This document shows positions 34,510-64,000 of a stretch of 64,000 nucleotides of DNA, one piece after another (within the stretch, counting starts at the first letter, position 1; every line of letters starts with the position of its first letter). The DNA comes from a virus. A program made the position numbers and the translations under genes. The notes below the pieces were generated by a model, which worked only from the letters and a program-made list of their open reading frames with translations, ran no database searches and had not been told where the DNA came from. Location: positions 1 to 64,000 of the IMG/VR virus record IMGVR_UViG_3300028416_000501; one strand, given 5' to 3'.

Positions 34510-34521
34510 CACGGAGGTAAC

Positions 34522-34902: not shown

Positions 34903-34923
34903 TTTAAAAGGAAATTCAAAATA

Positions 34924-43068: not shown

Positions 43069-43518
43069 ATGAACTATATTGAGATAACAGGCGGCAAAAA
43101 AAGCCAACAAGACAAGATACGCACAATGGTAGAGTTTTGTATTAAAAAACTTATGCCTCGTATGAAAACTCTTAATATTGAAGTTAAAGTTACTCGCATC
43201 AAAGGTGATGCTGAAGGCTATTGTTTGCGTGAGTCAGACAGAGATTTTGAAATTGAAGTAGATAGCAGATTACCATTGCGTAAGATGTTAGAAACAGTTG
43301 CACACGAAATGGTACATGTCAAACAGTATGCTAGGCGTGAAATGAATGACTGGCAGTACAAAGAAGTGTACTATAAATGGAAAGGAACATATGTTCCTGA
43401 TTCAACCGACTATTGGGATTTGCCTTGGGAGATTGAAGCTAACGGTAGAGAAGTTGGATTGTTTATTCGTTGGGCTCAACAGTATGGATGGGCAGGCAAA
43501 GAGTGGACACAAATTTAA
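43069..43518 (+). CDS. Zincin-like metallopeptidase
   Basis: VAHEMVHVKQ (HExxH) and PWEIEA. Confidence 0.75.
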   Translation: MNYIEITGGKKSQQDKIRTMVEFCIKKLMPRMKTLNIEVKVTRIKGDAEGYCLRESDRDFEIEVDSRLPLRKMLETVAHEMVHVKQYARREMNDWQYKEVYYKWKGTYVPDSTDYWDLPWEIEANGREVGLFIRWAQQYGWAGKEWTQI

Positions 43519-43733
43519 TTTAGTGTAACTTCTTTAACACCTTGTAGTTTTAATAAGAAATACTCCTTCTGGGAGTATTTTTTTTGAATCCAAATTGCAT
43601 GTCTTGGATCAGCACCATATTTAAATATAGTCATTTCGTAGTAATATCCAACAATTAGATTACCACTAGTCATACGTTTTGGCCACCAAGCAAACACTCT
43701 GTTAACTGTATCGGGTCTTCGTATTATTCCCAT
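43515..43733 (-). CDS. Small hypothetical protein, last gene of the minus-strand block
   Basis: FAWWPKRMTSG; its stop overlaps the stop of the convergent gene (TTAA). Confidence 0.55.
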   Translation of the reverse strand: MGIIRRPDTVNRVFAWWPKRMTSGNLIVGYYYEMTIFKYGADPRHAIWIQKKYSQKEYFLLKLQGVKEVTLN

Positions 43734-44899
43734 TATTTAAAAGTTTCGTCGCCTGGAAATAGAGGCATTTTTGTTCCTGCTCTACGCTTAGGAATTTTAC
43801 TATCAGCACTACTTACACATGCACCTGTTGTACATAATGCAGGACCATCAAACAACTTAAATCCTGTTTCAATGTTGCCCAAAGGTTGATCCATACAACT
43901 GTAAGAACGCTTAACACTACCATCAGGTTCACGTATAATTATGCTACGGTATCCGCTACTACATTCCCATCCTTTAAACTTATTAAAGTCAAATGCGTTG
44001 AATCGTTCTGCTTGGTCCATGTACCACGGCTCGCCATCTTCATCTCTGAATTCTACTTGCATGTGCCAAGGAACTTTTGCAGTTTGCTTTCTATATTCAT
44101 CTTCTTGATCAATTTTAAATGTAGGCTTAGGTCTTGTTACTAATTGTTTTTGTTTAGCCTTAGCTTCTGTATATCCACGTTGCGGCATTCCATTATGCAA
44201 TTTAGCTCGCATCTCATCTGTATAACCGTCTACTACTCTACTTGCAGTTGGATCACTTTGAGGCTTTAGTGTTACATTGATTCCTTGATTGTGAAAGAAC
44301 AATGCGTTTTCATAATATTCATCAAATAATTCTGGAACCATAACCATATTAATAGTTACCTGCACATCATGTTCTTGACATAGTATAAGTTTGTCTGCAA
44401 GATCTTGCATCTTCTCAACTGTGTCAACATGCTCAACATGTAAACTACATGTGATACTAGCACGGTGAAAATGGCTTGCATAATCTACATAGGTTTTAAA
44501 CCATTTCATATTACGACTACAGTTACTTGTCATGTGTACACTTGTATAGTTTGTGTTATGCACATCATCGCTTAGATGTTTCAGCATATCCAAGTACCCA
44601 GGATGAAACGTTGGTTCGCCTCCACTTAAACTAAAATGGAAACTGTTAAATCCACGTTCACGTGCTTGACGTTTAATCTCATCAATAGTTTTTAAATTTA
44701 GCTCTGTAGGTCTATGGTCTTTTCTACTGCTTCTAGCATAAGGCCAACAGTAACTACAGTTGTAGTTACAAAAGCGGCCTAGTAGCCAACTCACAGTGAA
44801 CATGTCTCTGTACAACATATTGCGTTGTCCTACACGAACTAGTTTATCGTACGGTGTTTTAGTGAAGTCGTACTCGCTCCATTTTAAATCATTTGTCAT
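43733..44899 (-). CDS. Radical SAM protein with C-terminal twitch/SPASM-like domain
   Basis: CNYNCSYC, SGGEP, C-terminal GWECSSG...C...C...C. Confidence 0.9.
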   Translation of the reverse strand: MTNDLKWSEYDFTKTPYDKLVRVGQRNMLYRDMFTVSWLLGRFCNYNCSYCWPYARSSRKDHRPTELNLKTIDEIKRQARERGFNSFHFSLSGGEPTFHPGYLDMLKHLSDDVHNTNYTSVHMTSNCSRNMKWFKTYVDYASHFHRASITCSLHVEHVDTVEKMQDLADKLILCQEHDVQVTINMVMVPELFDEYYENALFFHNQGINVTLKPQSDPTASRVVDGYTDEMRAKLHNGMPQRGYTEAKAKQKQLVTRPKPTFKIDQEDEYRKQTAKVPWHMQVEFRDEDGEPWYMDQAERFNAFDFNKFKGWECSSGYRSIIIREPDGSVKRSYSCMDQPLGNIETGFKLFDGPALCTTGACVSSADSKIPKRRAGTKMPLFPGDETFK

Positions 44900-45752
44900 T
44901 ATTGTAATTCTTCGTTATATAGTTTACCCATGTATTTATACCTTGCTTAGTGCTGTACATTTTCTCGTCAGGCTTAATGTTTTTAAAATCTTCTAAATTA
45001 AAATAAAAGAATGTTGTTTTTGTTTCTAACCATTTCTCAATTAAACCTGCTAATATGGAGTGTGTTTCATTTGTAAAATGTGCAGGCCTAACATCGTAAG
45101 ATGGGAACAGATCTTTATCCCATCCTAATATTGTATTTTCAAATTTAACAAGATCAAGCAATGAATGTACTTCTGGTCTTAGTATATTTTCATTTGTATT
45201 AGGATCATACCAATGAAATCCTTTTATAATCTTAGCGTCTGGTCTTAGTCTTGTAACCTTATCCAATATTAGTTTGGCAAATGTATTTTCTCTTTCTGTA
45301 AATCCATTATGCACATGAAGTTCATGCCAGTTTGCTATTTTTGAATACATATGATGTTTGTACATTGAATTGTCATCTTTGAGTTTTGCATATTTATTAG
45401 CCTCATTATTTGCCATTTCTATACTAGTCGAATGAGCATTATCATCATTTGGCCCACGATTATCTTCTTCCCAATAATCATGCATAAAGGTTAATCTATT
45501 GTTTGAATTTGTTAATACAAAGATAACTTGCTCATACTGTTGATGATACTTTTCAAACTGCATAAAACTGTAATATAAATCAGTTCCACCAAGTCCATAC
45601 GAATCCGCATCTAGTAGATCTATCCATGTTTTAAAAATACTATTATTAAATAAATTAATTTGCCTCTGAGTTTCCATGATTGATTGGTGCGGTACTATGA
45701 CTTTGCTTTCTGCAAAACTATCTCCAAATACACCTATTTTTTTACTGAACAT
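44889..45752 (-). CDS. SGNH-like protein
   Basis: GVFGDSF, YGLGGT, RPAHF. Confidence 0.55.
   Translation of the reverse strand: MFSKKIGVFGDSFAESKVIVPHQSIMETQRQINLFNNSIFKTWIDLLDADSYGLGGTDLYYSFMQFEKYHQQYEQVIFVLTNSNNRLTFMHDYWEEDNRGPNDDNAHSTSIEMANNEANKYAKLKDDNSMYKHHMYSKIANWHELHVHNGFTERENTFAKLILDKVTRLRPDAKIIKGFHWYDPNTNENILRPEVHSLLDLVKFENTILGWDKDLFPSYDVRPAHFTNETHSILAGLIEKWLETKTTFFYFNLEDFKNIKPDEKMYSTKQGINTWVNYITKNYNNDK
44933..44940 (-). promoter_or_regulatory. Possible late promoter TATAAATA
   Basis: Exact T4 late consensus 33 nt upstream of ATG 44899, inside the upstream CDS. Confidence 0.4.
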
Positions 45753-47053
45753 TATTTTTTCTTATCCATATCTGTTATAGTTTCATTAAATTTAGTAAAT
45801 GCCTCATATTTTTTATCATGCTTGTTATTATCAATACAAGACTGTAACCAACTAATTGCACCATTGATATGTGTTTCAAACATAAACCTTCGTTTAGTTT
45901 CACGTCTTTCGGGGGTCTTTAAGCTATCAAATACCCGTTTTAAGCCGTCTATTCCAGTTTGTAGTTGTTCAGGGCTTAGTACATTAGCATGCAAGAAATC
46001 AGGCCATTGTACGCGGCTTGTATGCCAATTTACCCCTAATTCATATACAATAGCTTCAGCTGTAGCACCTAATTCCATAGCATTCATGCCACTTATACAG
46101 GTAGTTCCTTTAATAACATCTAAGTTATCAAGCTCTCGTTTAACTAATTCAATATTGCTTTTTAATAAATCCCAATCAGATCCTCTACGAATCATATGAT
46201 TAAGATCTTTGTGTCCATCAATACTAATAGTTAATTTAATACTTTTAAATTTTTTCCATAAGTCTATTACATTAGTTTTACCTAGTTTCATAATACTTAA
46301 ATTTGTACTATATTTTAATGTAACATTTTCTGGATGTTTAACACTTTCCAATACACGATAATGTATTGGATCCATTAATGGCTCACCGCCAGCAAATTCT
46401 AATTCATCAACATGTTCCATGAGTTCAACTAGGTGCCCAACAAATTTCTCATCTTTTTCATACAAGTTCATTACTCGAGACGTACGAAGGTTGTTACTAT
46501 CTACAATCTGATCAATATATTTTTGATCTCCTGCACTATAAAATTTAGAAACATTATCCCAATCTGTTACCCACTTTGAACTGTCTTTTGGCCAACACAT
46601 TCTACATTTAAAATTACATACATTACTAAGTTTTAATTCTAGTAAAGGTATTTTAAATTCTACTTCTCTGTTAATTAAATAATGCTTTACATTTTCTCTG
46701 TAAATTTCTTTATCCATTAAATCAGTAAGTCTGTTTAAACGTAAACTAACGATTTCATTATCTTCCATCTTCCAACAATTATTACATTGTGTTGGTTTTT
46801 CTCCAACAATAAGAGCATCACGTATTTCGTTCATGTATTCACTATGCCAGTAATCTTTTAAATCAAAGTCTGTATTCTTTACATTAGGATTTCCATCTTC
46901 GGGTGGTTGTGCTCTACAACAAAGTTTTATCTCACCATGTGGCATTGTACTAATATGTGAAAATGGTAATGGACAAAATGTATCCTTTGTTACAGGTAAT
47001 CCTGCTAATTTAGATTCAGCTCTATCTTTAAATGTATTGTAATTATTCTTCAT
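45752..47053 (-). CDS. Radical SAM protein with N-terminal twitch-type domain
   Basis: CPLPF...CC...CNNCW, CNFKCRMC, AGGEP. Confidence 0.9.
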   Translation of the reverse strand: MKNNYNTFKDRAESKLAGLPVTKDTFCPLPFSHISTMPHGEIKLCCRAQPPEDGNPNVKNTDFDLKDYWHSEYMNEIRDALIVGEKPTQCNNCWKMEDNEIVSLRLNRLTDLMDKEIYRENVKHYLINREVEFKIPLLELKLSNVCNFKCRMCWPKDSSKWVTDWDNVSKFYSAGDQKYIDQIVDSNNLRTSRVMNLYEKDEKFVGHLVELMEHVDELEFAGGEPLMDPIHYRVLESVKHPENVTLKYSTNLSIMKLGKTNVIDLWKKFKSIKLTISIDGHKDLNHMIRRGSDWDLLKSNIELVKRELDNLDVIKGTTCISGMNAMELGATAEAIVYELGVNWHTSRVQWPDFLHANVLSPEQLQTGIDGLKRVFDSLKTPERRETKRRFMFETHINGAISWLQSCIDNNKHDKKYEAFTKFNETITDMDKKK

Positions 47054-47375
47054 CTTTGCCTATCCGTAATCTGTGTACGTGTTCTGGTAATGCCTTTGAT
47101 AATTGTACATCTGCAGAACAAATACATCTGGGCTTATTACATATAATAGTTTCTTTAGGCATTTCAAATCCATCATAAATATTTCCCAACTTACCGCCTA
47201 CTTTACATATAGCTCTATATACATCACCTGTATTGCTTATAGTAATATTTTGCACGCCTGCCCAACATTCCCAACCACGGAAATCATTCTCATCGCGAGC
47301 CATAACACTATTTGCATTATCTTCTTCGCTTGTACCATCCTTGTAGTGTACAATAATATTTTTAAAATTGCTCAT
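47043..47375 (-). CDS. Stand-alone twitch/SPASM-like Fe-S domain
   Basis: FRGWECWAG...C...LGNI...C...CICSAD, homologous to the C-terminus of 43733-44899. Confidence 0.75.
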   Translation of the reverse strand: MSNFKNIIVHYKDGTSEEDNANSVMARDENDFRGWECWAGVQNITISNTGDVYRAICKVGGKLGNIYDGFEMPKETIICNKPRCICSADVQLSKALPEHVHRLRIGKDEE

Positions 47376-48597
47376 AAAATTCCTTAAATGTCTGATGGAA
47401 TTTTTCTTTTCTTATTGAATCTAATTCAAAATTTTGTTGTGTAAAATTATTCCATTCTTTTGGATCTGGTCGTCGACTATACATGTACTCCACTGCATTA
47501 GCAATCCATTTAGATTTAGTATCTCTATACTTTGTGCTGATAATATTTTTTATATGTTGAGGCATTATGTGTATAGCATGCTGGCCTACATTTACATAAT
47601 GATTGGGCGGTATGTTAGTGTTTCCTTCTATAAAATCTGCAAATTCTAAATTAGAAAATTCTTTATAAATTTCTTCTAAATAGAATATATTAAATACGCT
47701 TATAGCAGGGTCTAAAGTAGAAAAATATTTCTCAACATTGTTTAATTTTTGAAATTTAACTAGATTATTTCTTACTTCTTCCCAATTAGCTAATTTACGC
47801 TGGTAGTTAAATCTCTCATCAATATCATCTATACTTAATGCAAAGTTTACTTTCTTAAAATTATTATATAGGTCAAAGTTTTCTTCAGTAGGAAAGTATG
47901 TTCCGTTTGTATTGTATCCTATTGTTATTTTACTTGTATCTATGTTTGGATGATCAACTAATGCCTGTATTAGTTGAAAATGCTCGGGAACCATAAAAGG
48001 TTCGCCTCCCATAAAATGTAAAAACTCTATCGATTCCATTTCATTAATGTCGTTCCAAATTTTAGGATCATCTATCCAATTACAAGATTGTGTATATTTA
48101 AATGCATTTGAATCTTTAAATTTTACTCCAGGCTGATCTAATTCTGCCGTGTCTTTTGTCCAACTACTACTACCATGCACACCGCATATTCTACATTTTA
48201 AGTTACATCTATTTCCTGGTTTTATTTCTAACCATTTTAATTTCATATCTGGATATTTTCCAGTTTGCATAAATTCTTCAGTTGTGCCTCTGCTCCATGC
48301 ACTCGTTGAGAATTTTGCTCTAATTTCTGGATCTTCCCAACATTGGTGACATGCAGGGTGCTTTTCGTTACGTTTAAAACTCTCCATAAATTCAAATCTT
48401 ACTGGATCGTTGTATACTTCTTGTATTGTTTTATTACTAATATTTAAATCAAAAGGATCTCCCATGCAGCAAGGTCTTATTGATCCATTAGTTTCAACTG
48501 CCATATGCATAAATGGCAAAGCACAAAAGTTATTACCTGGTTTCTTCAGCCATGTTTTTAAATTATCTGCCACTGTCAAATCCTTTGCTAGTTTCAT
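47362..48597 (-). CDS. Radical SAM protein with N-terminal twitch-type domain
   Basis: CALPF...CC...CHQCW, CNLKCRIC, MGGEP. Confidence 0.9.
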   Translation of the reverse strand: MKLAKDLTVADNLKTWLKKPGNNFCALPFMHMAVETNGSIRPCCMGDPFDLNISNKTIQEVYNDPVRFEFMESFKRNEKHPACHQCWEDPEIRAKFSTSAWSRGTTEEFMQTGKYPDMKLKWLEIKPGNRCNLKCRICGVHGSSSWTKDTAELDQPGVKFKDSNAFKYTQSCNWIDDPKIWNDINEMESIEFLHFMGGEPFMVPEHFQLIQALVDHPNIDTSKITIGYNTNGTYFPTEENFDLYNNFKKVNFALSIDDIDERFNYQRKLANWEEVRNNLVKFQKLNNVEKYFSTLDPAISVFNIFYLEEIYKEFSNLEFADFIEGNTNIPPNHYVNVGQHAIHIMPQHIKNIISTKYRDTKSKWIANAVEYMYSRRPDPKEWNNFTQQNFELDSIRKEKFHQTFKEFYEQF

Positions 48598-48919
48598 TAT
48601 AACCTATACCTGGATGATCTTGATTTTTCTTTAGACATAATCGTAAACATGGTTCTGGCAAATCTAATGTTTCATGTCCCTTTAGTATTGCGTTGAATAC
48701 ATCTGATTCATATATTTCTGCCATTGTACTAGTTCTTATATTTAACTTTGACATATCTAAATTATTTTCTTCAGCCCATGCTTCTAAATATTTCCAGTTG
48801 CAACGGGATCCATACAAATTGCAAGGCCTAACATTACCTGAGGATCCTAATTGAATAGGAAATTTCCCACTGTCATCCTTTCTGCATTTAGGGTCTATTA
48901 ATGGGTTAATTTTATACAT
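48563..48919 (-). CDS. Stand-alone SPASM/twitch-like domain
   Basis: PKC...GNVRPC...PEPCLRLC; start moved to ATG 48919 overlapping the upstream stop. Confidence 0.6.
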   Translation of the reverse strand: MYKINPLIDPKCRKDDSGKFPIQLGSSGNVRPCNLYGSRCNWKYLEAWAEENNLDMSKLNIRTSTMAEIYESDVFNAILKGHETLDLPEPCLRLCLKKNQDHPGIGYNETSKGFDSGR

Positions 48920-49535
48920 ATGGATTATTCTCCCCTGGTAGCATTCCATAATTATCTTCACCACGCAAACTTACTACAGGATTAAATTTATCAAATCCCA
49001 AATCCATTGCCATTTTCCTAGCAGTATCAACTTGATGTTCGTTGTATTTAAAAATTAAGAATTTCCATTCTAGTTTGGGTCTTCTTTCTTTTGGTATACT
49101 AGTCATCCATTTTACTCCAGTCATTATTTGTTTCCATTTTGAATTTATTCTGTATATATGATTAGTATCTTCTAGACCATCTATACTAAAAGTAAACATA
49201 GAACCTTTCCAATCTTGCTCTGCAGCCGCTTGCCAAAACTTTTCTGGCTTTGCACTGCCATTTGTATGGACTTCTAAGTATTTTCCTGCTTTAATAAAAT
49301 AGTCACAAATTTCTAAAAAATCTGGGTGGTATATTGCATCACCGTAACAACCAACTATCATATACTTGCGGAAGGCTGTAGTATCTGCTATCTTAAATAA
49401 TAACTCTTTATCTAAGTGTCCTGCATCCCATATTTGCTTGCCTTCTGGGTCATGCATTCTCGAACAAGCTGGACATTGTAACACACATTTACTAGTTATT
49501 TCGATTTCTAATTCATCTTTATGTTGATTAAGCAT
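48912..49535 (-). CDS. Short radical SAM core protein
   Basis: CVLQCPAC, GCYGDA, HTNGS, FSIDG. Confidence 0.85.
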   Translation of the reverse strand: MLNQHKDELEIEITSKCVLQCPACSRMHDPEGKQIWDAGHLDKELLFKIADTTAFRKYMIVGCYGDAIYHPDFLEICDYFIKAGKYLEVHTNGSAKPEKFWQAAAEQDWKGSMFTFSIDGLEDTNHIYRINSKWKQIMTGVKWMTSIPKERRPKLEWKFLIFKYNEHQVDTARKMAMDLGFDKFNPVVSLRGEDNYGMLPGENNPYV

Positions 49536-50244
49536 TTTCTCTCAGCCAACTTTCTTCTTCTACACTATAGTATTGTCCTGCAAACTTTTCAGTTTCACTA
49601 TGTGTGGGATGAATTCCTAACATGCCGTCGGCATATGGTTTATTCCAACCTGTACGATCCATGTTAACACGTGGTCGAATTTTTCTTATAGTGTATTCAA
49701 CACCACATTCTTTTAGTTCGTCTATGATTTCTTTCCACTGTACTAAGTGTCCTGGCAATGCCATAATATGAACATGCATACCTTTATATTCATCTTTAGC
49801 TCTATATTCTTGTATTTCTTTCCACATACCTGTGATGTTATTAATAACTTTCTCATGATATGCAAATTCAAAGTGATAACTTATAATAACATAATGTAAG
49901 TATGGCAATGCTTTTTTATATATCTTAGGCGGTGGACTTCCATTAGTTGTTACACTACATCTGTATACGCCATTTTCTTTGGCATATTTTAACATGTCAA
50001 TAAACTGTGGATGTACAAACGGCTCTCCGCCTGTAAAACTAATTTTAATCTTTTTGCCATTTGATGCTTCTACTATTTTATCTATTGTATTTGTATACAC
50101 TTCCCAACTCATATGTTCGCTAGTTTTATTGTGTAGTTCATTACCACAATAACTACAGTTGTAATTGCAACGTTTGCCTAAGTTCCATTCAACTCTAAGC
50201 AGTTCGTCTTTTGGTGCGTGATTATCTTCTAAGGCTACTAGCAT
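49528..50244 (-). CDS. Radical SAM core protein lacking its auxiliary domain
   Basis: VEWNLGKRCNYNCSYC, TGGEP; paralog of the 43733-44899 N-terminus. Confidence 0.88.
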   Translation of the reverse strand: MLVALEDNHAPKDELLRVEWNLGKRCNYNCSYCGNELHNKTSEHMSWEVYTNTIDKIVEASNGKKIKISFTGGEPFVHPQFIDMLKYAKENGVYRCSVTTNGSPPPKIYKKALPYLHYVIISYHFEFAYHEKVINNITGMWKEIQEYRAKDEYKGMHVHIMALPGHLVQWKEIIDELKECGVEYTIRKIRPRVNMDRTGWNKPYADGMLGIHPTHSETEKFAGQYYSVEEESWLRENA

Positions 50245-51416
50245 TAAAAATATTCCTTTAGTTGAGGCACTGCGTTTAATACACTGTCTCCTCGCATTTT
50301 ATCTAAGTCGTTTGTAAAGTTGATAAATGTTTCCCATAGCTCTGGGTTAAATGTTCTGGTCTTCATACTCTCTACTAGCTTGTCAAAATCATCAAATAGA
50401 GATAAGTTTTTAATTGCTTGATCTCGTAAATCATCTGGTAAGTTCATTGGACTTAAATATGCTGGTTTATTACAAATAGTGGTGAAACTACTGTTTGCAC
50501 TTACTTTACTATATTTATCTTCCATTTCGTGAAGGAAAAAATGTAAGTCTGGTAAGTTAAAAACATTATAATTCTGTAGTGTTACATTAAACATAATCTG
50601 TACATTGTCTAATTCGTTATACATTGCTAATGTTTTCTCAAAATCTTCTAATTGATATTTGCCACCTCTGATGTATCTATATAGCTCTCCTGTGCCTTCT
50701 ATACTAAAACATATACTAACACGTTTAAACTGTTTTAGCAAGTTTAATATTTTAGGATTAACTACTGTACCATTTGTTGTATAAAATAATTCTACATCAG
50801 TCATATCTTCTTCAATAAGCCATTGTAGGAATTGATTGTGATGTTTTGCCATCATGGGCTCACCACCTTTAAAGTCTATGCGTTTTACATCTTTTAGATG
50901 CGGTAGCATATTGCGTAAATCTTCTAATCCATATTGTTGTAATGGAACTGGATTACTATTTTTCTCATATCGTTTGTCTATTTTAGCAAGTGCTAGTTCT
51001 TCTTCAAACCAACTGTTACTTGCCCAACTTCCACACATACGACATTTTAAGTTACACACATTTGATAAGTTAATGTCTGCTTGATAGAACTTAGGGTTAG
51101 GAACTTTATATGTGTCTGGTGTATTGCCATTTATAAAGTCTGCATCAGATTTCATAAACTTCTTATTAAACCATAAGCGTCTACTTTGACCTACCAAATC
51201 TTCTCTTTCCCAACAACTATTACAAGCACTAGGTTGTATACCTTTTAAAAAATCTTTACGTAATTCTCGCATACGCTCACTGTCAAAGTTTTCCATGATA
51301 GTATCATGTTCAGTGTTTGGCCTGCGTCCTTTGTTGCTGAACTGACAACAAGGTTTTATATCACCATTTGCACTTAGTGTAATTGCATGCCAGGGCATGT
51401 AACAAAATTTATTCAT
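50244..51416 (-). CDS. Radical SAM protein with N-terminal twitch-type domain
   Basis: CYMPW...CC...CNSCW, CNLKCRMC, KGGEP; start moved to 51416. Confidence 0.9.
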   Translation of the reverse strand: MNKFCYMPWHAITLSANGDIKPCCQFSNKGRRPNTEHDTIMENFDSERMRELRKDFLKGIQPSACNSCWEREDLVGQSRRLWFNKKFMKSDADFINGNTPDTYKVPNPKFYQADINLSNVCNLKCRMCGSWASNSWFEEELALAKIDKRYEKNSNPVPLQQYGLEDLRNMLPHLKDVKRIDFKGGEPMMAKHHNQFLQWLIEEDMTDVELFYTTNGTVVNPKILNLLKQFKRVSICFSIEGTGELYRYIRGGKYQLEDFEKTLAMYNELDNVQIMFNVTLQNYNVFNLPDLHFFLHEMEDKYSKVSANSSFTTICNKPAYLSPMNLPDDLRDQAIKNLSLFDDFDKLVESMKTRTFNPELWETFINFTNDLDKMRGDSVLNAVPQLKEYF

Positions 51417-56114: not shown

Positions 56115-57475
56115 TTTAGCCTTCCAATATTAGTCATATCGTAGTAGCTTCCATTCATGTTGCCATTTAGATAAACTTTATCTGAGATACTTTGTACCTT
56201 TGTTATGTATTTAATACCGTTAACTGTAGTACTAAGTCCTTTACTAAAATAGTTTGATTCATAGTTCCAAATGTTAGTACACTGTAGTAAAACTGTTTTA
56301 TTATGTGGTAACATGTTTACAATGGAATCATAATCTTCTACAATATTAACTACTTCAAACTGATGTTCTAAATTTTGTATCTTGCGCCAAAGTGTTAACC
56401 ATTGCTCTTTGCTATCAAAACTGTCTAAAAACTTTTCCCATGTTCCATATCCATTTATAAATTGTCCATTAAAGTTTAACCTATGTTTATTTGTTTCAAA
56501 GAAGGTAGGAAAGTCTATTCCATCCCATTCGCTTACTAGTATCTCTAACCATTGCACTGCATGTGGATTGTAATCAGTCCATATAACCATTTCCATGTTA
56601 TCAATACTATTTTCTATATACTTAAATTGATGAAGTCCACTACATGGACATACGGCTACTTGCAAATCTGATACATCAGTATGCGGTACAGTTTCCGTGT
56701 TTGTTACATATAGATTAGTAAATTCTTGTATTTTAAATTCTAACAATGCTCTCTTATCTGGATAATTTTCTCTTATATCGTATACAACTTCAGGATCGGT
56801 ATATTTTTTAAATAATTCATTTTCAGTAAATTCAATATCATCTTCGGGATACGAACATTCTTTGTTGCTTCTTATATTATAATCTAAATTAAAAATTGTT
56901 AAGCCTTGATCGATGGATGTTCTTAGGAACTGATCAAATATAGATCTCTCTGGTTGAACATTTATAAGACTGCCATCTAACAATGGCTTTATCCACTTGG
57001 GTGTATAATCATCGTGCATATGTTCTGTACTAGTAGTATACTCATACAACTTAATTTTAGATAAAAACTTGTATGTGTCTAAATTAACTATGACGCACTG
57101 TGTATGAAAATGTGGATCACTTCTGCTAGGGCGATCTATTATATGTCCTGCACAGCCCCATTTTTCTTTATTCCATTCAGTTACTGATTTTAAAATTTCA
57201 TTATCAATTTCTGGGTCACTTGGCCAACTGCCTTCTGCCCATATTACTGCTACTTTGAAGTTTAACTGTTTTAAATCATTAAGTAAAAAGTCTAGATTAT
57301 CATTACTGCAATCTATAACAAAAGAACCATCAGTGTTTAAGTCTACATTAATATTTGTTATTGATTTTAACACTGATACATAATCATCTGAAGCATTTTC
57401 AAGTTCGCTCACAATTGAACGTTCCATAGTTATATGGCATATCTCTTTACCTCTAATTGTAAGTTTTGGTAACAT
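56105..57475 (-). CDS. Unknown two-domain enzyme (paralog A)
   Basis: YVTNTE, CSGL, IWTDYN, EWDGIDFPTF, CTNIWNY shared with the next gene. Confidence 0.6.
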   Translation of the reverse strand: MLPKLTIRGKEICHITMERSIVSELENASDDYVSVLKSITNINVDLNTDGSFVIDCSNDNLDFLLNDLKQLNFKVAVIWAEGSWPSDPEIDNEILKSVTEWNKEKWGCAGHIIDRPSRSDPHFHTQCVIVNLDTYKFLSKIKLYEYTTSTEHMHDDYTPKWIKPLLDGSLINVQPERSIFDQFLRTSIDQGLTIFNLDYNIRSNKECSYPEDDIEFTENELFKKYTDPEVVYDIRENYPDKRALLEFKIQEFTNLYVTNTETVPHTDVSDLQVAVCPCSGLHQFKYIENSIDNMEMVIWTDYNPHAVQWLEILVSEWDGIDFPTFFETNKHRLNFNGQFINGYGTWEKFLDSFDSKEQWLTLWRKIQNLEHQFEVVNIVEDYDSIVNMLPHNKTVLLQCTNIWNYESNYFSKGLSTTVNGIKYITKVQSISDKVYLNGNMNGSYYDMTNIGRLKWI

Positions 57476-58761
57476 TAAATTCCTTGACCTATACTATCAT
57501 TTGTGCTGTATCCTAGTACCCATTTAACATCGCAAGTTAAATCATTATCATTCGGGTCTGTTCCTGAAAACCAGCACTTATCTATTTGTTGTAGTCTTAC
57601 CATTAATTCAGCAAAACTGCGTTCTAGTGTAAACGGTTCAACTATTACTTTGAGTAGCACATAACTGTATATGTTGCTTGCCCAAAAGAATGTACTTGAA
57701 TTGTTGTCTAGTTTGTCTGTAATTTCTTTATGATTGTTTACAAGGTCTACTTCTAAGAACTCGTGTTTACATAACTTTACTTGCATCCAAAAGTCTAGCC
57801 AATTGTCCATTCCACCGAACTGTTCTACTATATTTAACCAATCTTTATCTACCTGTTTTAGCAGTAACGAATTAGCGTCTGGATTGTCTTCGCACCATTG
57901 TTTAACAAACGCTGGATAGTCAAATCCGTCCCATTCTTCCACCATTAGACGCTTAAATTTAACGCTGTAAGCGTCAAAATCATACCATACGAACTTTGTA
58001 CTGTCTATATCAATACCGTACGTATATGCGTAGTATAGAAGCTTAAAACCAGCCGTTACACCCACATATTGCTCAAATACAGTGTGTTTTATAGCATCTG
58101 CTACTGTTGGACTACTAGGCTCTGTATTAACAAAATACACCGGGCTACTGGGTATATTCTTGCGTTTAATAATAACTCTAGCACCTCTGGCAATTGTGTG
58201 ATCTGTATACTTCTTATTCATTAACCCATTTAAAAAGTTAACTGGGTCTGTTTTTGGAGCACCTACTACAATGTTTCTTTCTATAGTTTTGCTTAATTCT
58301 ACTGTTGACTCACCTAGCCAATTTTCTGCCCAGAAATCGTAATCTCCAAAGTTTGGTGCTTTTGCAGGCCAGGCAATAAATTCGTCTATGTTTAGTAACA
58401 TTAAACTATCTACATATTTTGGGTGTACTGCTGTAATCCAATCTTTCTTTTCTAAACGATTTATATAAGTCAATATCTTCTTTTCAATTCCATCTGTTTT
58501 AGGCCAGCATCCATCAAACCAGAATGCAACATACTTGTGTCCCATCTTTCTAACATGTTCAATCCATTCGATGCTACTAGTATTATACAGGTTAACTATA
58601 CTAGATGTCAAGTGATTATCGCACTCTACTTGTTGCAATAACAGTAGCTTTTGTTTGAGTGTTTGATGTGATGCTAAATGTGTGTTTTTTGGTATAAACA
58701 CATTTACTATTTCACAGTCGCTTACAAACTGATAATCCCAATCTTTTTGCCCTTTAATCAT
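57475..58761 (-). CDS. Unknown two-domain enzyme (paralog B)
   Basis: YFVNTE, TAGF, VWYDFD, EWDGFDYPAF, ASNIYSY. Confidence 0.6.
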   Translation of the reverse strand: MIKGQKDWDYQFVSDCEIVNVFIPKNTHLASHQTLKQKLLLLQQVECDNHLTSSIVNLYNTSSIEWIEHVRKMGHKYVAFWFDGCWPKTDGIEKKILTYINRLEKKDWITAVHPKYVDSLMLLNIDEFIAWPAKAPNFGDYDFWAENWLGESTVELSKTIERNIVVGAPKTDPVNFLNGLMNKKYTDHTIARGARVIIKRKNIPSSPVYFVNTEPSSPTVADAIKHTVFEQYVGVTAGFKLLYYAYTYGIDIDSTKFVWYDFDAYSVKFKRLMVEEWDGFDYPAFVKQWCEDNPDANSLLLKQVDKDWLNIVEQFGGMDNWLDFWMQVKLCKHEFLEVDLVNNHKEITDKLDNNSSTFFWASNIYSYVLLKVIVEPFTLERSFAELMVRLQQIDKCWFSGTDPNDNDLTCDVKWVLGYSTNDSIGQGI

Positions 58762-58897
58762 CGGATAACCTTTGTATTAATTCTGATAGTTTATCTCTTA
58801 GTCTATCTAATGCCTTAGGGCTTAGTTTTTCAGCTTCACAAATGTATATTGTTTCTTTCATTTTTTCTATTTGATAAATTAAGTCATTTTGTTTCAT
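58754..58897 (-). CDS. 47-aa coiled-coil hypothetical protein
   Basis: Read by hand; overlaps both neighbours. Confidence 0.5.
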   Translation of the reverse strand: MKQNDLIYQIEKMKETIYICEAEKLSPKALDRLRDKLSELIQRLSDD

Positions 58898-59073
58898 TGT
58901 AATTTTTTCCAGTGATGTGTATCATCTTCAGTAGGTAATTGACCAATATATTCTTCGCCAGTTTCCATGTCAACTAGTTTCCATTTGCCTGGGCACTTAG
59001 TCTTTACTTTTAATGTTATTGCTACATCATAAGCAGGCACTTCTGCGCCACTAATTCTTAACTTTCTATTCAT
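58894..59073 (-). CDS. 59-aa protein (TKCPGKWKLVDMETG)
   Basis: Read by hand; GAAGGT SD; ATGA overlap. Confidence 0.6.
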   Translation of the reverse strand: MNRKLRISGAEVPAYDVAITLKVKTKCPGKWKLVDMETGEEYIGQLPTEDDTHHWKKLQ

Positions 59074-59086
59074 TTACCTTCTTCTT

Positions 59087-59845
59087 TCATTTGTATTTGT
59101 ATTCATCAGCAATGGCGATAATAGTATCCCATGATAATTCAACTATGCTTTTAATCATAGGGTGTGCTATTTGATTAAGATGATTATATTGATCAATTAT
59201 AGGATCAAATAATAATTTATGATTTACTGTTACATGGTAGTCAAAAAATTGTAGTGATGTATAATTCTTTTGTAGTAGTTCGCCAGCATTAACCCATATT
59301 AAGTTATTATGTGTTTTCATATACTCTTGTTCCATGAGTGTTTTGACCCTTATACGATGACACATTCTTTCGAGACTAATTTTTGTGTTATAATCAACAT
59401 CTTCCGCAGCTTCGTCACTAAATTCCATCATTAAGAAATGAAACCTATTAGTAGGCTGATTTTTCATATCAAGATATGTACTATAAAAATTACCACTAAC
59501 ATCACAAATTACATTACTAATAACATCCGCTATGCAATTAACATAAAATCCAGAGCTTTTATAATCAATTACCATACTATTATCAGTACTGTATCTAATA
59601 TGCTCATTGTAGTATTTCAGTTCTTTGGTATTGTCAAAATGCTTATATGTGTCTCCGTGATGTGTGTAATAGTCATCACTGTGTCGTACATATAATCCAA
59701 AAATGCCTGGATAAAATTCCCAAAGATCCTTGCCATGATTCTCTGCTCTAAGTACTGTGAGTAATCTATTTGTAAGTTCATTCAAACTATGTCCTGGGCC
59801 AACTACAATATCTCTATCAGCTAGATTTTTGTTCCAAATAGTCAT
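59087..59845 (-). CDS. Hypothetical protein, weak sulfotransferase-like loop
   Basis: IVVGPGHSLNELTNRL. Confidence 0.5.
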   Translation of the reverse strand: MTIWNKNLADRDIVVGPGHSLNELTNRLLTVLRAENHGKDLWEFYPGIFGLYVRHSDDYYTHHGDTYKHFDNTKELKYYNEHIRYSTDNSMVIDYKSSGFYVNCIADVISNVICDVSGNFYSTYLDMKNQPTNRFHFLMMEFSDEAAEDVDYNTKISLERMCHRIRVKTLMEQEYMKTHNNLIWVNAGELLQKNYTSLQFFDYHVTVNHKLLFDPIIDQYNHLNQIAHPMIKSIVELSWDTIIAIADEYKYK

Positions 59846-61080
59846 TTATTTTCTGCCTTCATTAATCTGTTGTGTACTGATTCCATATTTTCAATTTCCA
59901 GTCCTAGATGCTCTCTAACTAAAGATTTTAGAGAAATTGACATTGGGTATCTCATTTCTATATCTCTGTTATATTTTCTCATTTTTGCATAGTCTCGAAT
60001 ATTTGGTTGATTGCTTTCTATATAATTAATAAATCTCTGCATCTCAGGGTGCCTATCTAACGCACCTTTTAACTTATTAATAATTGCTTCTCTGTATTCT
60101 TCGGGCCAAACACTAGGTGTTAAGTATCTGGGTGTTTGTAGTACGTTTGCAGTAATAAATCTTAAATCTACTTCACTGTCTTTCCAAAAGTCATAAAACT
60201 CGGGCATATGAAATACGTTATGTGATTGTACTGTAATGCCTGCTGCAACATCAATAGTAGGATAACTATTTAATGCTAACATGTTTGCGTATACATTGTC
60301 CCAATCTCCATCCCTACGTATAAAATTATATACATCACCTACGCCGTCCATACTTATTTTAATATTAACACTTTTAAATTCATTCCAAATTTTAATTAAA
60401 TCATATTGTTTAAATTTTATATAACTTAGATTACTAGCATACCGTAGTTTTATTTTACTTTTTAGATGCAGTGGAATTGACTCTAACAAGTCATAATGTT
60501 CTTTATTAATAATTGGTTCACCACCAGTGAACTGTAATGTATGCACTGACTCCCATAATTCCGGCCATTCGTTTAAACTATTAAATAACGTTGTTGGCCT
60601 TAGTAGCTTAGTTTCGTGTCCATCTTTTTGATATTTTGTTATAATATCTAAATCTTTTACACGTTTATAACTACTGTGAGTACTACACATTATACATTTT
60701 AGATTACAAAAGTTACTGACTTTAAGTTCAATCCATTTAGGACTATTACTAACACTATAGTCATCATTAACTTCAATGACTTCTGAAAATTCATTCCAGT
60801 TGTCCTTTTCCCATTGTTGACGGTTGCTTACAATGCCACTATCTTCGTTATGCCAACACACTTCACAGCGTTCTGGTCTTTCGTCCTCTGCCAAAGCACG
60901 TCTTAGCTCTTTATAGTTTTCGTTGTTCCAGCTTTCAAGAGCAGTCTCACCTGGATTATTCAATGGGGTTTCTTGCGCCTCACAACAAGGCACCATGTCT
61001 CCACCGGCACTTCCGTAAATGTGCATAAATGGTAACATACAAAATGTTTTACTCTTTTTTAGTTTATCTTTATCTATCAT
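59842..61080 (-). CDS. Radical SAM protein with N-terminal twitch-type domain
   Basis: CMLPF...CC...CEVCW, CNLKCIMC, TGGEP. Confidence 0.9.
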   Translation of the reverse strand: MIDKDKLKKSKTFCMLPFMHIYGSAGGDMVPCCEAQETPLNNPGETALESWNNENYKELRRALAEDERPERCEVCWHNEDSGIVSNRQQWEKDNWNEFSEVIEVNDDYSVSNSPKWIELKVSNFCNLKCIMCSTHSSYKRVKDLDIITKYQKDGHETKLLRPTTLFNSLNEWPELWESVHTLQFTGGEPIINKEHYDLLESIPLHLKSKIKLRYASNLSYIKFKQYDLIKIWNEFKSVNIKISMDGVGDVYNFIRRDGDWDNVYANMLALNSYPTIDVAAGITVQSHNVFHMPEFYDFWKDSEVDLRFITANVLQTPRYLTPSVWPEEYREAIINKLKGALDRHPEMQRFINYIESNQPNIRDYAKMRKYNRDIEMRYPMSISLKSLVREHLGLEIENMESVHNRLMKAENK

Positions 61081-62206
61081 TGTATTTTAGTATATTCTCA
61101 AACTTAGGTGCAAGATTTATATCTTGTCCTCTATGTGTTAAAATTCTATTTAACTCTTTTATATACTGCTCACTATTATCTTGTTGATTATCTGTAGTTG
61201 CACACATATTTTTTAATAACTTATAGCTAGGTGTAAACTTACCAGCATTCTTATTAAATCCCATGTACTGTTGATCTATTGTTAATTCTAATGTACGCTT
61301 AAACCAATTTGGCCAATGCTCTACACTCATATAATGAGGCTCATATACTGTTTGTAGCATTACTCCAATGCCTTTATGCACTCTTGCCCAATGTATAAAC
61401 TCATGTAGCTGTGGAGCGTTAATAACGCTTACAGTGGTGGCTGTAGCTATTTTTAAGCGTCCTGTAGCGTCTTTTACTTCTATCCACTTGTCAAGTGTAG
61501 CCTCTATTGTTTCCCACTTACTAGGGTAACGTAGAAGGTCGTTTGTAGTGCCCACACCATCAATACTAGGACTTAGTTGTATACGCTTAAACTTTAATAA
61601 TGCATCAAGTTCTAATTTCTTTGGAAACCATGTACAGTTTGTAAATATCTCTAAGTCGATCTGTCCTGCTATTCCACTGTCCGCTAATCTAACGACTAGG
61701 TTTAAAAACTGCCTATGTAAGAACGGCTCGCCACCTGTTACTTTAATAAACTTAACATGCTTTAATTTGTCTAAATCTAAATTATCTAAATCATATTCTT
61801 GTACTTCTTTTAATTTTTTAATCTTCTCTGGAGAACTAATGCCTAATGCAAGTTCATCTTTGTCCCACGTATGACTAAACTCTGCTCCACAACTTAAACA
61901 TGCTAAGTTGCAAAGTCTACCTACTGTTATTTCTAAATACTCTAAACGTACTGTATCTGTAAAGTCATCAAAGAATTCATCAGCTTCAGTTCTCATACTG
62001 CTACCTTTCATTTCTTCGTCAGACTTACATTTATAACATCCAGGGTGCCATTCATTACGCATCATAGTTTTGCGTATCTCGTTAAAGCTATTATCTTCTG
62101 GTAAAAATCTTGTATGAAATCTACAACATGGTGTTGCAGGTTGTCCGTGCATAAGCATTTCTGCTTTGAACGGGTAAGCACATGCGTTAGCAGGTAACTT
62201 ATTCAT
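61070..62206 (-). CDS. Radical SAM protein with N-terminal twitch-type domain
   Basis: CAYPF...PCC...CYKC, CNLACLSC, TGGEP. Confidence 0.9.
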   Translation of the reverse strand: MNKLPANACAYPFKAEMLMHGQPATPCCRFHTRFLPEDNSFNEIRKTMMRNEWHPGCYKCKSDEEMKGSSMRTEADEFFDDFTDTVRLEYLEITVGRLCNLACLSCGAEFSHTWDKDELALGISSPEKIKKLKEVQEYDLDNLDLDKLKHVKFIKVTGGEPFLHRQFLNLVVRLADSGIAGQIDLEIFTNCTWFPKKLELDALLKFKRIQLSPSIDGVGTTNDLLRYPSKWETIEATLDKWIEVKDATGRLKIATATTVSVINAPQLHEFIHWARVHKGIGVMLQTVYEPHYMSVEHWPNWFKRTLELTIDQQYMGFNKNAGKFTPSYKLLKNMCATTDNQQDNSEQYIKELNRILTHRGQDINLAPKFENILKYNDR

Positions 62207-63104
62207 AAAAATTTCCTTTGTTTTTGTAACGCTTTAGTGCTTTTGCAATATTAATTCTGTTGTATATTCCATCTCTATGAAACTCATCATACTGTGGACC
62301 TTTAGGTGCTAATGCAATATGTATGGTGTTTGTCATTTCAAATCCATAATGATCGCATACTGCTACATGCGAGTCCATATACTTTTTAGGAATAGTATCT
62401 GGTCCAAACTTTTCCATAAGCCTATTAGCAATTGCAGTGTTGAGATGGTTTCCATGATTCCAATCTGTTTGTACTTCTAAACTACCTTCGTTGATGCGTG
62501 AGAATGTAATACCTGCACGCCAGTTACCACAACTTAATCCTTTAGTAGTACTAAATGCTACCATCTTAATACAAGGTTCATCTAAGTTTATATCTATGTC
62601 AAAGCAAGTACCAAACCATGCACAATCAACTAACACTGGAATGTCTAATTGATTACATATTTTAATCATATCGTCAAACCGCTCTGGAACTCTACCAGTG
62701 CCACTAAATGGTACACTTACTAATACTGCATCACCTTGTGTTAAGCCCTTGTCATCAATACTGTCACTCCATTCTAAATTTGTGTGTATCAATGCATCTC
62801 TGTTATATGGATACTCACCTCTAAATGTTTTGAGGTTGAGGTTGTTCACTGAACAATAGTAGTGCCACCAATCTAGTGTCTGTGTAGTGCCTACACTTGC
62901 AAACCTATAAGGAAATGCATCAAGTCCAGTAAAGTTGTTTAGTTTACTGCTTTCAATCCAGCCTTGATATCTATCTAACATAATGTTAGACTCGTCTGCC
63001 AGTGTTGATATATCTATGTTAGGAAAGAATGTTTCATTGAGGTGATCCATGTATGGTTGGTTCCATACACTGTTTCCTGTCTTTCCAAAATCTGGGTTAC
63101 TCAT
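62199..63104 (-). CDS. PLP-dependent fold-type-I enzyme (aminotransferase/decarboxylase-like)
   Basis: VLVDCAW (DxA), FSTTKG Schiff-base Lys, WRAG. Confidence 0.75.
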   Translation of the reverse strand: MSNPDFGKTGNSVWNQPYMDHLNETFFPNIDISTLADESNIMLDRYQGWIESSKLNNFTGLDAFPYRFASVGTTQTLDWWHYYCSVNNLNLKTFRGEYPYNRDALIHTNLEWSDSIDDKGLTQGDAVLVSVPFSGTGRVPERFDDMIKICNQLDIPVLVDCAWFGTCFDIDINLDEPCIKMVAFSTTKGLSCGNWRAGITFSRINEGSLEVQTDWNHGNHLNTAIANRLMEKFGPDTIPKKYMDSHVAVCDHYGFEMTNTIHIALAPKGPQYDEFHRDGIYNRINIAKALKRYKNKGNFYE

Positions 63105-63999
63105 TGTATAATTTTAACTCCTTTATTAGTGCAAAGGTATCTGTGCCACGTAATCTGTCTAAGTCTTTTGTATACTTAACAAACCACTTCCATTGCTTTT
63201 CTTGTTCTGCTTCATCTACTTCAACTTGCAATCCATCTCTGATAGCATGAATACCTGTTTGATAATGTATCTCGTCTGCATGATAGCTTCCCTTAGGCCA
63301 AATACTTTGATCTGGTATCTGTAGTAATTTATCATACATAATGTACTTTAACACCTCCGGCATGTATGCAATATTGAGGTATGTAGGATTTACTACTACG
63401 TTGCTCATGCTTATACTTGCTCTGTGCATATGTTTCTCTTTAAACCAATTCCACACTTTGTCTAAGCCAAATACATTTGTTAGCATAACTGTTACTGCAA
63501 ACACAACTTCAATGTTAGGATATGTGTAAAACTTTTCTATGTTTTCTTCTAACTGTTCAAATGTATACGAACCGCCTCGTACTACACTGTATAATTCATC
63601 TACTGCTTCAATACTAATAAGCAATTCAATATGTTTAAAGTGTTTAAATATCTCTTGGAAGTCATCATCAAACACTGTAGCATTTGTACTAATATCTAGC
63701 ATAATGTTTGATGCTAGTCCTTGGTCAATAAACCATTGTAATATTGCTTTACAACTTTCGTCATATAAGGGCTCTCCGCCTCTTAGTGCTACCCACTGTA
63801 GGTTGCGAAAGTATTCTGGATCAGCAAACAAGTTATCAAGGAATGACATGTCTTCAACTCCATGATATCCTATTTGTGCATTTTTCCAATAGTCCGGTTT
63901 TTCTTTGTTTAGTTTCTTTCCATCCTTCGTCCAACCGGTACTAACAAATGGATTACAATGAATACATGCTAGGTTACACTTGTTGCTGATTGTAAAGTC
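63097..63999 (-). CDS. Radical SAM protein, 5'-truncated by the window edge
   Basis: Frame of ORF 63097-63849 stays open to 63999 and reads DFTISNKCNLACIHCNP; RGGEP. Confidence 0.88.
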   Translation of the reverse strand, partial: DFTISNKCNLACIHCNPFVSTGWTKDGKKLNKEKPDYWKNAQIGYHGVEDMSFLDNLFADPEYFRNLQWVALRGGEPLYDESCKAILQWFIDQGLASNIMLDISTNATVFDDDFQEIFKHFKHIELLISIEAVDELYSVVRGGSYTFEQLEENIEKFYTYPNIEVVFAVTVMLTNVFGLDKVWNWFKEKHMHRASISMSNVVVNPTYLNIAYMPEVLKYIMYDKLLQIPDQSIWPKGSYHADEIHYQTGIHAIRDGLQVEVDEAEQEKQWKWFVKYTKDLDRLRGTDTFALIKELKLYNE

Positions 64000-64000
64000 C

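Follow-up and report, generated by a model that had tools for sequence, protein, structure and literature searches.

The DNA stretch analyzed here comprises bases 1-64000 of the 79,053-base IMG/VR virus record IMGVR_UViG_3300028416_000501 and is referred to as the window. From position 43733 onward, it contains a long minus-strand block of genes for radical S-adenosylmethionine (rSAM) enzymes with genes for other enzymes interleaved, which raises the question of what such a block does in a virus and on which substrate its products act. We find that the block, as a gene cluster for tailoring or biosynthesis, has an rSAM density that is exceptional for a virus and is strongly conserved; the biosynthetic-cluster-scale, phage-borne pathway that had been proposed from the sequence alone (from here on, the original prediction) is supported. 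As to the substrate, we tentatively favor the reading, to which we give not quite an even chance, that the block performs the multistep tailoring of a nonpeptide and most likely carbohydrate-like compound (sugar, cyclitol, or glycan).

Radical SAM genes of the block

From position 43733 on, all long open reading frames (ORFs) lie on the minus strand and overlap by 1 to 50 nt, with a single gap at 58762-59086, in agreement with the co-directional, tightly overlapping block described originally. As anticipated, the block continues past the window edge; in the full record, it ends at 70737 and spans 27 kb. Membership in the rSAM superfamily was assessed by a match to PF04055 (Radical_SAM) above the gathering cutoff of 29.5 bits together with a CxxxCxxC motif. 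Eleven block genes inside the window (those starting at 43733, 45752, 47362, 48912, 49528, 50244, 51969, 53116, 54326, 59842, and 61070) exceeded this cutoff, and these 11 genes as well as 64347-65459, 67525-68778, and 69313-70737 scored 30.6 to 64 bits. In total, the window contains 15 rSAM genes (12 of them in the block), the whole block 15, and the 79-kb record 18. ORFs are present at all the positions at which the original prediction had placed rSAM genes, i.e., 12 from 43733 on and three more at 7109, 8274, and 19045 (originally given as 19099), and the latter three are N_Twi_rSAM genes with scores of 199 to 365 bits. The rSAM enzymes of the block represent three architectures, i.e., N_Twi, which has an N-terminal twitch domain, rSAM-B, and rSAM-C.

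N_Twi_rSAM corresponds to NCBIfam NF033640, which has a curated whole-protein cutoff of 170 bits. Fourteen genes of the record pass this cutoff with 195 to 412 bits, and 11 of these are complete inside the window, bearing out the claim that 11 genes carry an auxiliary iron-sulfur (Fe-S) domain N-terminal to the core, while the genes at 43733, 48912, 49528, and 64347 are not members (28 to 46 bits). Three N_Twi genes are on the plus strand outside the block, i.e., the adjoining genes 7109-8287 (199 bits) and 8274-9500 (365 bits) and 19045-20343 (240 bits), which is located immediately upstream of the DNA polymerase gene. The minus-strand members in the block include 45752-47053 (298 bits), 47362-48597 (272 bits; orthologs 51 to 67% identical in some loci only), 50244-51455 (316 bits), the strain-variable 51969-53147 (231 bits; orthologs only in the viral loci L005, L006, and L010), and 53116-54339 (383 bits), which is present in all related viral loci, with 62 to 98% identity in 15 viral loci, and has a ratio of nonsynonymous to synonymous substitution rates (dN/dS) of 0.07. 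Farther along are the short 54326-55381 (351 amino acids [aa]; 199.5 bits), 59842-61080 (314 bits), whose sister in the tree described below is a Bdellovibrionales gene with 99% support, 61070-62206 (223 bits; PF04055, 30.6 bits), and 63097-64347 (253 bits), which is cut by the window edge at 64000. The remaining two, 67525-68778 and the core-type 69313-70737, are beyond the window in the same operon.

The 14 N_Twi paralogs are only 22 to 32% identical in pairwise comparisons based on their alignment. C13, C83, and C86 of the twitch domain, C131, C135, and C138 of the CxxxCxxC motif, and GGE are invariant, and C31 and C32 are nearly so; the single exception is 63097-64347, which lacks this CC pair and with it the second twitch cysteine, even though few genes are as strongly conserved (dN/dS 0.05). 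The description of highly diverged paralogs with intact motifs is thus accurate with respect to divergence, CxxxCxxC, and GGE, while the CC pair is missing in one paralog. The likeness to NF033640 lies in the order of an N-terminal C...G-x4-C...CxxC twitch motif, CxxxCxxC, and GGE in all 14 proteins; the difference is that 14 diverged paralogs are found here in one phage and are clustered with two more rSAM types and tailoring enzymes. In a profile of the 14 paralogs, the N-terminal 70 residues align to the C-terminal twitch domain of BtrN, a 2-deoxy-scyllo-inosamine dehydrogenase, with an E value of 7.5e-6. This is domain homology only, and the twitch domain is N-terminal in the phage proteins and C-terminal in BtrN. 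Beyond the BtrN twitch domain, the profile matched generic rSAM cores only in the PDB, from which we conclude that no structure exists for the N_Twi family. Literature searches on N-terminal twitch rSAM enzymes identified no paper on function, in line with the view of NF033640 as a recognized family without a known function.

The last gene of the block encodes rSAM-B (43733-44899, minus strand; PF04055, 53 bits; dN/dS 0.07), which has the motif CNYNCSYC and a C-terminal Cys-rich twitch/SPASM-like domain and is 55 to 65% identical to the products of Bdellovibrionota genes that adjoin N_Twi genes. rSAM-C (64347-65459; PF04055) is encoded beyond the window in the same operon. Each of the two is also present as a split copy, and all pieces are encoded on the minus strand. 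In the case of rSAM-B, 49528-50244 encodes a 238-aa protein with an rSAM core only (PF04055, 64 bits; dN/dS 0.06) that is 36% identical to the N terminus of the 43733-44899 product, and 47043-47375 encodes a Cys-rich piece of 110 aa (dN/dS 0.05) that matches residues 282 to 371 of the same protein (BLASTP E 4e-13). Sequence comparison identifies 47043-47375 as one half of an rSAM-B-type enzyme that has been split, with the predicted core at 49528-50244. For rSAM-C, the core-only protein of 207 aa encoded by 48912-49535 (PF04055, 35 bits) is 29% identical to the N-terminal half of the 64347-65459 product (E 2e-22), and the SPASM-like 133-aa piece encoded by 48563-48964, which matches Pfam SPASM weakly (E 0.005) and had no significant BLAST match to the C terminus of rSAM-C, is probably the piece that pairs with the core encoded at 48912. 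We note that the split pairs are nested within 47043-50244, with the core at 49528 and the piece at 47043 lying 2.1 kb apart and N_Twi 47362 and the pair 48912/48563 lying between them; in the relative L002, the outer split pair is separated by an N_Twi gene alone.

Phage origin, conservation, and bacterial counterparts

Based on sequence comparisons, the contig is a fragment of an uncultured marine jumbo myovirus. The contig encodes a family B DNA polymerase (PHROG 262, E 3e-195) as well as a clamp loader, and the polymerase shares 44 to 48% identity with its counterparts in Atu_ph07, Phosso, and 121Q/Rak2-like phages, all of them jumbo myoviruses. The genomes of these phages are 348 to 490 kb, which agrees with the completeness of 23% estimated by CheckV. 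The GC content is steady at 0.32 to 0.36, and the GC skew reverses at ~43.7 kb, the point at which the coding strand changes. Moreover, the block order and the flanking genes are common to 15 IMG/VR contigs of up to 205 kb, which argues that the contig is not chimeric. Together, the jumbo-phage polymerase and the 15 contigs with the same gene order speak against a cellular or chimeric contig, which the original prediction had named as grounds for rejecting it. Related records contain 7 to 25 rSAM matches each; Pfam Gp23 had zero matches in any record and in the control alike and is uninformative.

Among deposited phages, a megablast search with the block gave no match, and tblastn searches gave none for rSAM-B and two distant matches only for the core N_Twi protein. 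The relatives among deposited phage genomes are distant only, i.e., KVP40-like Vibrio phages, Ralstonia phage RsoM2USA, and Vibrio phages K566 and K567. The latter two have four N_Twi-like rSAM genes within 7 kb (in K566, at 5881-12617 of locus L096), and the cultured phage K566 is a possible laboratory model. The three rSAM families are abundant in marine viromes, with 1,949 relatives at E values of ≤1e-10 for a single paralog.

The paralogs of such an array could also be duplicates that are redundant or in decay and have no function in common. Consistent with this, the gene content varies among relatives, with 44889, 47362, 48563/48912, 51969, and 59087 coming and going, and two rSAM enzymes are each encoded as separate pieces. 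Also, a contig of the RNA-library run X16 joins 51969 to 53144 via 26 other bases, and since this contig skips the N_Twi paralog at 51969-53144, a co-occurring strain lacks it, in agreement with the patchy occurrence of this paralog among relatives. Against decay, the catalytic cysteines and GGE are intact, and every block gene with orthologs has a dN/dS of 0.05 to 0.45, mostly <0.2; these values are rough because dS is near saturation (~1 to 1.8). The block genes are under purifying selection, which is strong for the split pieces (0.05 to 0.06). Finally, the paralogs, at 22 to 32% identity, fall into distinct subfamilies that are old and also found in bacteria, as described below. We consider decay very improbable and largely refuted by these data. 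Contigs of four metatranscriptome libraries from different studies cover 22 to 30 of the 30 block bins at ≥99% identity and are consistent with expression. The further concerns of the original prediction, i.e., that the paralogs are unexpressed or under relaxed selection, are accordingly not borne out by the RNA libraries and the dN/dS values.

To what extent is the array specific to phages? A scan of 185,579 species genomes identified 79 loci, mostly in Bdellovibrionota, with ~30% identity to the query paralog; bacterial core-type N_Twi proteins are 56 to 62% identical to the 69313-70737 product. N_Twi, rSAM-B, and rSAM-C occur together in ~32 of the 79 loci, and homologs of the other block proteins are found in fewer of them (PLP-like and SDR-like, 7 each; amidinotransferase, AspH, and u428, 2 each; these proteins are described below). 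The genes for the PLP-like enzyme, N_Twi, and the amidinotransferase are recurrent close neighbors in the phage and in loci L038 and L027, in variable order and with other genes between them. Some loci assigned to metagenome-assembled genomes (L017, L075, and perhaps L027 and L018) resemble misbinned phage contigs, while the chromosomal loci L022, L026, L030, and L053 have no sign of this. Among 99 neighbor genes of bacterial N_Twi genes, 21 encode rSAM enzymes and 8 encode GT2 glycosyltransferases. The isolate Bdellovibrio sp. HCB2-146 has, at ~1.858 to 1.895 Mb, an island in which four rSAM genes are interspersed with five glycosyltransferase genes, and six of the seven N_Twi genes of this isolate are within 37 kb. 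Bdellovibrionota genomes with such an island have 7 to 9 N_Twi genes, and the finding of rSAM-B in 16 of 301 sampled Bdellovibrionota genomes indicates that the island is accessory. These previously undescribed islands resemble the phage block in having the core-type N_Twi, rSAM-B, and rSAM-C genes and, in some loci, homologs of the other enzymes, and differ from it in the interleaved GT2 genes, which are missing from the phage.

We placed the 14 phage paralogs in an N_Twi tree of 172 proteins calculated using FastTree, in which branches are long and deep joins are unsure. The phage paralogs are spread over clades together with bacterial proteins, with 13 changes of label, of which well-supported branches force at least 8. 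Because phage and bacterial sequences interleave in this manner, the paralogs are old, functionally distinct subfamilies. The comparisons indicate that the array is neither a peculiarity of phages nor the result of a recent burst in a phage and that its subfamilies are shared with bacteria. Separately, we observed that on a Candidatus Parcubacteria contig of 1.27 Mb (L078), seven N_Twi genes, rSAM-B, and rSAM-C form a single run in the same direction; for a genome reduced to ~1.7 Mb, as in this member of the candidate phyla radiation (CPR), this is a considerable investment.

Tailoring enzymes and the substrate of the pathway

Which substrate is modified? The enzymes encoded between the rSAM genes provide the first indications. 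The original prediction of a pyridoxal phosphate (PLP) enzyme is borne out at the level of fold; 62199-63104 (minus strand, 301 aa) yields a model with a predicted local distance difference test (pLDDT) score of 90.7 that matches fold-type-I PLP enzymes in Foldseek (E 4.5e-10, probability 1.0), the nearest folds being class I/II aminotransferases and C-S lyases. The Pfam match is at an E value of 0.007 only, while D160, S185, and K188 are invariant (in 15 sequences for D160 and K188). Beyond the window in the same operon, 65459-66544 encodes an amidinotransferase of the StrB1/HsvA/SxtG type, which matches HsvA over residues 19 to 355 (E 6e-26) and SxtG and StrB1 at ~1e-17 (StrB1, 2e-17), with GGIHC aligned to the catalytic GSFHC, in which the catalytic Cys is near the C terminus. 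The predicted AspH-like oxygenase is confirmed by a match of residues 67 to 230 of the 55359-56114 product (minus strand) to PF05118 with 47.5 bits (cutoff, 22.6 bits), making it a 2-oxoglutarate/Fe(II) oxygenase of the AspH family. The prediction of a short-chain dehydrogenase/reductase (SDR) is only partly upheld. The compact 187-aa protein encoded by 51409-51972 (minus strand) has the expected TGxxxGxG- and YxxxK-type motifs, and TGNPxxG, S91, and Y104xxxK108 are invariant, while it has no Pfam or NCBIfam match and only its C-terminal part matches an SDR in the PDB, weakly (E 0.03). The SGNH-like call for the 287-aa protein encoded by 44889-45752 (minus strand) is unsupported; among the SGNH blocks (GDS, G, GxND, and DxxH), it has the N-terminal GDS alone, without a Pfam, NCBIfam, or PDB match, and its homologs in four viral loci are 30 to 35% identical.

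Two adjacent genes next to the oxygenase gene encode paralogs, u456 (56105-57475, minus strand) and u428 (57475-58761, minus strand; dN/dS 0.10), which match each other with a BLASTP E value of 2e-17. u428 has two domains, and in an AlphaFold2 model (pLDDT 62 overall and 75 to 94 in the C-terminal domain), residues 205 to 416 are predicted to have a class I SAM-methyltransferase fold, with VIA Z scores of 8 to 12.4, only methyltransferases or uncharacterized proteins among the top 50 rows, and a Foldseek E value of 4e-3. Based on the paralogy, we infer the same C-terminal fold for u456. For the N-terminal domain of u428, an Atlas search gave weak GT-A-like leads only, with chance-level scores (0.81 to 0.83), and hhalign found no relation of u428 or u456 to the GT2-like neighbors in bacteria. 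In the bacterial locus L027, an 808-aa protein is a fusion of an AspH domain to a u456/u428-type domain (u456 aligns to residues 351 to 721), which speaks for a joint action of the adjacent phage genes. Two further proteins have few relatives or matches. The 252-aa product of 59087-59845 (minus strand) is genome specific, with no Pfam or NCBIfam match and no homolog in any related locus compared, and PDB sequence searches gave nothing credible for u302 (66581-67489, plus strand, beyond the window) or for the AspH-like protein.

The presence of auxiliary Fe-S domains raises the possibility that the block modifies proteins, e.g., of the virion, or a ribosomal peptide. SPASM/twitch rSAM enzymes are best known as maturases of ribosomally synthesized and posttranslationally modified peptides (RiPPs), and the phage enzymes share with PqqE, AlbA, SkfB, and PapB the combination of an rSAM core with an auxiliary Fe-S domain and match PapB, YhhB, XyeB, and SkfB in NCBIfam weakly. 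Moreover, hydroxylation of residues in proteins is known for part of the AspH family, and an M17 aminopeptidase and ClpP are encoded on the contig. However, the maturase matches are far below cutoffs and involve the generic rSAM core only, and the auxiliary domain is N-terminal in the phage enzymes. We found no Pfam match to a RiPP recognition element (RRE) or PqqD at an E value of ≤0.01 in any of the 26 block proteins. As for a precursor peptide, the small ORFs of the block, i.e., those of 47 and 59 aa in its only gap (58754-58897 and 58894-59073, minus strand; found in the nearest relative only) and 43515-43733 (present in some phages only), are not conserved more widely, and none is found in the bacterial loci. 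The absence of an RRE and of an obvious precursor had been noted originally and is hereby confirmed. In addition, the relatives of the amidinotransferase act on small amines, and the bacterial neighbors are GT2 genes rather than genes for proteases or transporters. We therefore regard a protein or peptide substrate as improbable.

Alternatively, the block could hypermodify bases of the phage DNA as a defense against host restriction, in the manner of the thymidine or 7-deazaguanine pathways. Enzymes of the rSAM and PLP types are part of established routes to DNA hypermodification in phages, the N_Twi gene 19045-20343 directly precedes the DNA polymerase gene, and a GTP cyclohydrolase I (FolE) gene is near a second rSAM mini-array in a related phage (see below). 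Against this, the same gene set is found among glycosyltransferase genes in bacterial chromosomes, no domain for binding DNA or flipping bases was detected among the block proteins, and neither TGT/DpdA nor a thymidylate synthase-type hydroxymethylase was found in five related records (79 to 205 kb), which are fragments, so that absence is unproven. Overall, a role in DNA modification seems quite improbable.

A third possibility is a noncarbohydrate small molecule, e.g., a tailored polyamine or a lipid/polyketide-like or amino acid-derived compound, that would be produced in the course of infection and act as a free effector. In favor of this, the solved relative closest to the amidinotransferase is HsvA, whose amidino group acceptors are polyamines; the PLP enzyme belongs to the amino acid class I/II type; and no GT2 was found in the phage lineage. 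Also, in two Alphaproteobacteria, Sphingomonas sp. 37zxx (L091, 12703-19734) and Poseidonocella sedimentorum (L095, 13221-20174), a lone N_Twi gene is located beside a gene for a type I polyketide synthase (PKS) of ~2,300 aa. This PKS-linked clade is, however, apart from all phage paralogs in the tree, the block lacks genes for PKS, nonribosomal peptide synthetases, and fatty acid synthesis, and GT2 genes are the commonest non-rSAM neighbors in the bacterial islands with the core trio. We consider such a product unlikely.

The original prediction had left the substrate at virion proteins or glycans, DNA, or a small molecule. Because of the GT2-rich islands and PKS neighbors, the type of amidinotransferase, and the absence of an RRE and precursor, this choice is narrowed to a sugar-like compound or small molecule, while a ribosomal peptide and DNA are disfavored. 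The carbohydrate-like substrate that we tentatively favor is suggested by analogy, i.e., by the GT2-rich bacterial islands, by a GT1 and NDP-sugar epimerase gene pair, and by the similarities to BtrN and StrB1. The gene pair is found in related phages such as the relative G002, whose segment at 18.3 to 31.9 kb (L098, 1340-6344 and 11520-14883) contains another mini-array, of four rSAM genes, and, ~5 to 8 kb from it, genes for a GT1, an NDP-sugar epimerase/dehydratase, GTP cyclohydrolase I, and a phosphoribosyltransferase (PRTase). The phage operon resembles aminocyclitol routes in combining a StrB1-homologous amidinotransferase with an enzyme of the PLP aminotransferase fold; it differs from them in that the PLP enzyme is not of the DegT/BtrS class and that no inositol or 2-deoxy-scyllo-inosose synthase is present.

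On a carbohydrate-like scaffold, each rSAM enzyme would abstract a hydrogen atom from a different unactivated C-H position; as in BtrN, the twitch cluster may accept the second electron, so that ketones, epimers, or deoxy or cross-linked positions result. A ketone generated by a twitch rSAM enzyme or the SDR-like enzyme could be transaminated by the PLP enzyme, and the resulting amine could be converted to a guanidine by the amidinotransferase. Biosynthesis of streptidine and 2-deoxystreptamine follows this same logic, in which an alcohol becomes a ketone, then an amine, and then a guanidine. The AspH-like oxygenase and the methyltransferase-fold proteins would share one substrate, possibly for hydroxylation followed by O-methylation, and the product would be either attached to the phage or cell surface or a free metabolite.

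Several points weigh against this reading. No member of the N_Twi, rSAM-B, or rSAM-C families has a known reaction, and the N_Twi family includes no solved structure. There is no recognizable GT2 in the record or in four related records (110 to 205 kb), and for this reason the sugar link in the phage rests on the bacterial neighbors, the GT1 and epimerase genes of relatives, and GT-A leads at chance level. The fold of the PLP enzyme is that of amino acid class I/II aminotransferases and C-S lyases and not that of DegT-type sugar aminotransferases; HsvA acts on polyamines; and the N_Twi family is not confined to sugars because one of its clades adjoins a type I PKS. Lastly, the RNA-library contigs are strandless, and contaminating DNA is possible.

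Supply genes, related systems, and implications

The pathway may be supported by genes elsewhere on the record. A plus-strand set at 29743-32872 encodes a DUF59/SufT-like protein (PF01883), a 7Fe ferredoxin (PF00037 with PF11953), Nfu (PF01106), a PRTase (PF00156), and an A-type carrier (PF01521), and the wider plus-strand run at 28422-35562 adds the M17 aminopeptidase, MazG, a Cpn10-like protein, and ClpP. This run has the appearance of a gene set for Fe-S supply and salvage that serves the many rSAM enzymes. The operon of the block itself includes, beyond the window, 68780-69316, which encodes a relative of nucleosidases of the methylthioadenosine/S-adenosylhomocysteine (MTA/SAH) type (PF01048, 54 bits) that scores below equivalog cutoffs (NF004168, 91 bits versus a cutoff of 129). 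MTA/SAH-type nucleosidases remove 5'-deoxyadenosine, an inhibitory by-product of rSAM enzymes.

Several other features were observed in the record. In the only gap of the block, a TTGACA/TATAAT-type site with an 11/12 match (58973-58945) is a candidate host sigma-70 (early-type) promoter, and a second candidate precedes the amidinotransferase gene (L001, 4709-4681; record, ~66708-66680), where TTGACA-17-TATAAT is matched perfectly and the -10 element is extended by TG. Sigma-70-like sites were not enriched over shuffles, and neither was the T4 late-promoter motif TATAAATA (5 found versus 13 expected). A 168-aa ORF at 33617-34123 matches only the start of the NTPase domain of the bacterial DNA polymerase III alpha subunit (PF07733, E 4.5e-10), and such a fragment-sized gene is odd in a phage that already encodes a family B polymerase. 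The replication-side module of the phage also includes a gene for a MotA/TolQ/ExbB-family proton channel-like protein (40648-41088; PF01618, E 7e-8). Just past the rSAM block, at 72478-75215 of the record (L001, 10479-13216), a gene for a DUF2201 metallopeptidase/von Willebrand factor A domain protein adjoins a gene for a MoxR-like AAA ATPase, and both products are 86 to 91% conserved in the relative G002.

A comparable viral genome has been reported. The T4-like marine viral genome TARA_ERS488813_N000010 has 12 rSAM genes together with genes for an A-type carrier, cas4, grx, and paaD (Nishimura et al. 2017, PMC5332604). In that study, the rSAM genes were only counted, in a discussion of Fe-S metabolism, and families, anatomy, or a bacterial counterpart were not described (PMC5332604). 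By the published description, the likeness consists in a dozen rSAM genes accompanied by the virus' own Fe-S assembly, which is represented here by the DUF59/PaaD-like protein, Nfu, the A-type carrier, and ferredoxin, together with ClpP.

We speculate further, while judging it unlikely as a whole, that jumbo phages, Bdellovibrionota, and some CPR bacteria share a toolkit of at least 12 distinct and previously undescribed radical C-H functionalizations for making one heavily decorated carbohydrate-like product with amino, guanidino, hydroxy, and methyl groups, which would serve as an aminoglycoside-like diffusible effector in the attack on prey or host or as a surface cloak. If true, a virus would encode a complete natural product pathway with an unprecedented rSAM density. 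Working out the pathway could reveal many new radical enzyme chemistries and a new class of phage-made products or a new modification of virions or hosts, and it would explain why jumbo phages carry genes for Fe-S assembly, ferredoxin, and 5'-deoxyadenosine salvage. The link to predatory bacteria, e.g., to the isolate HCB2-146, offers a culturable route to the function of these enzymes.

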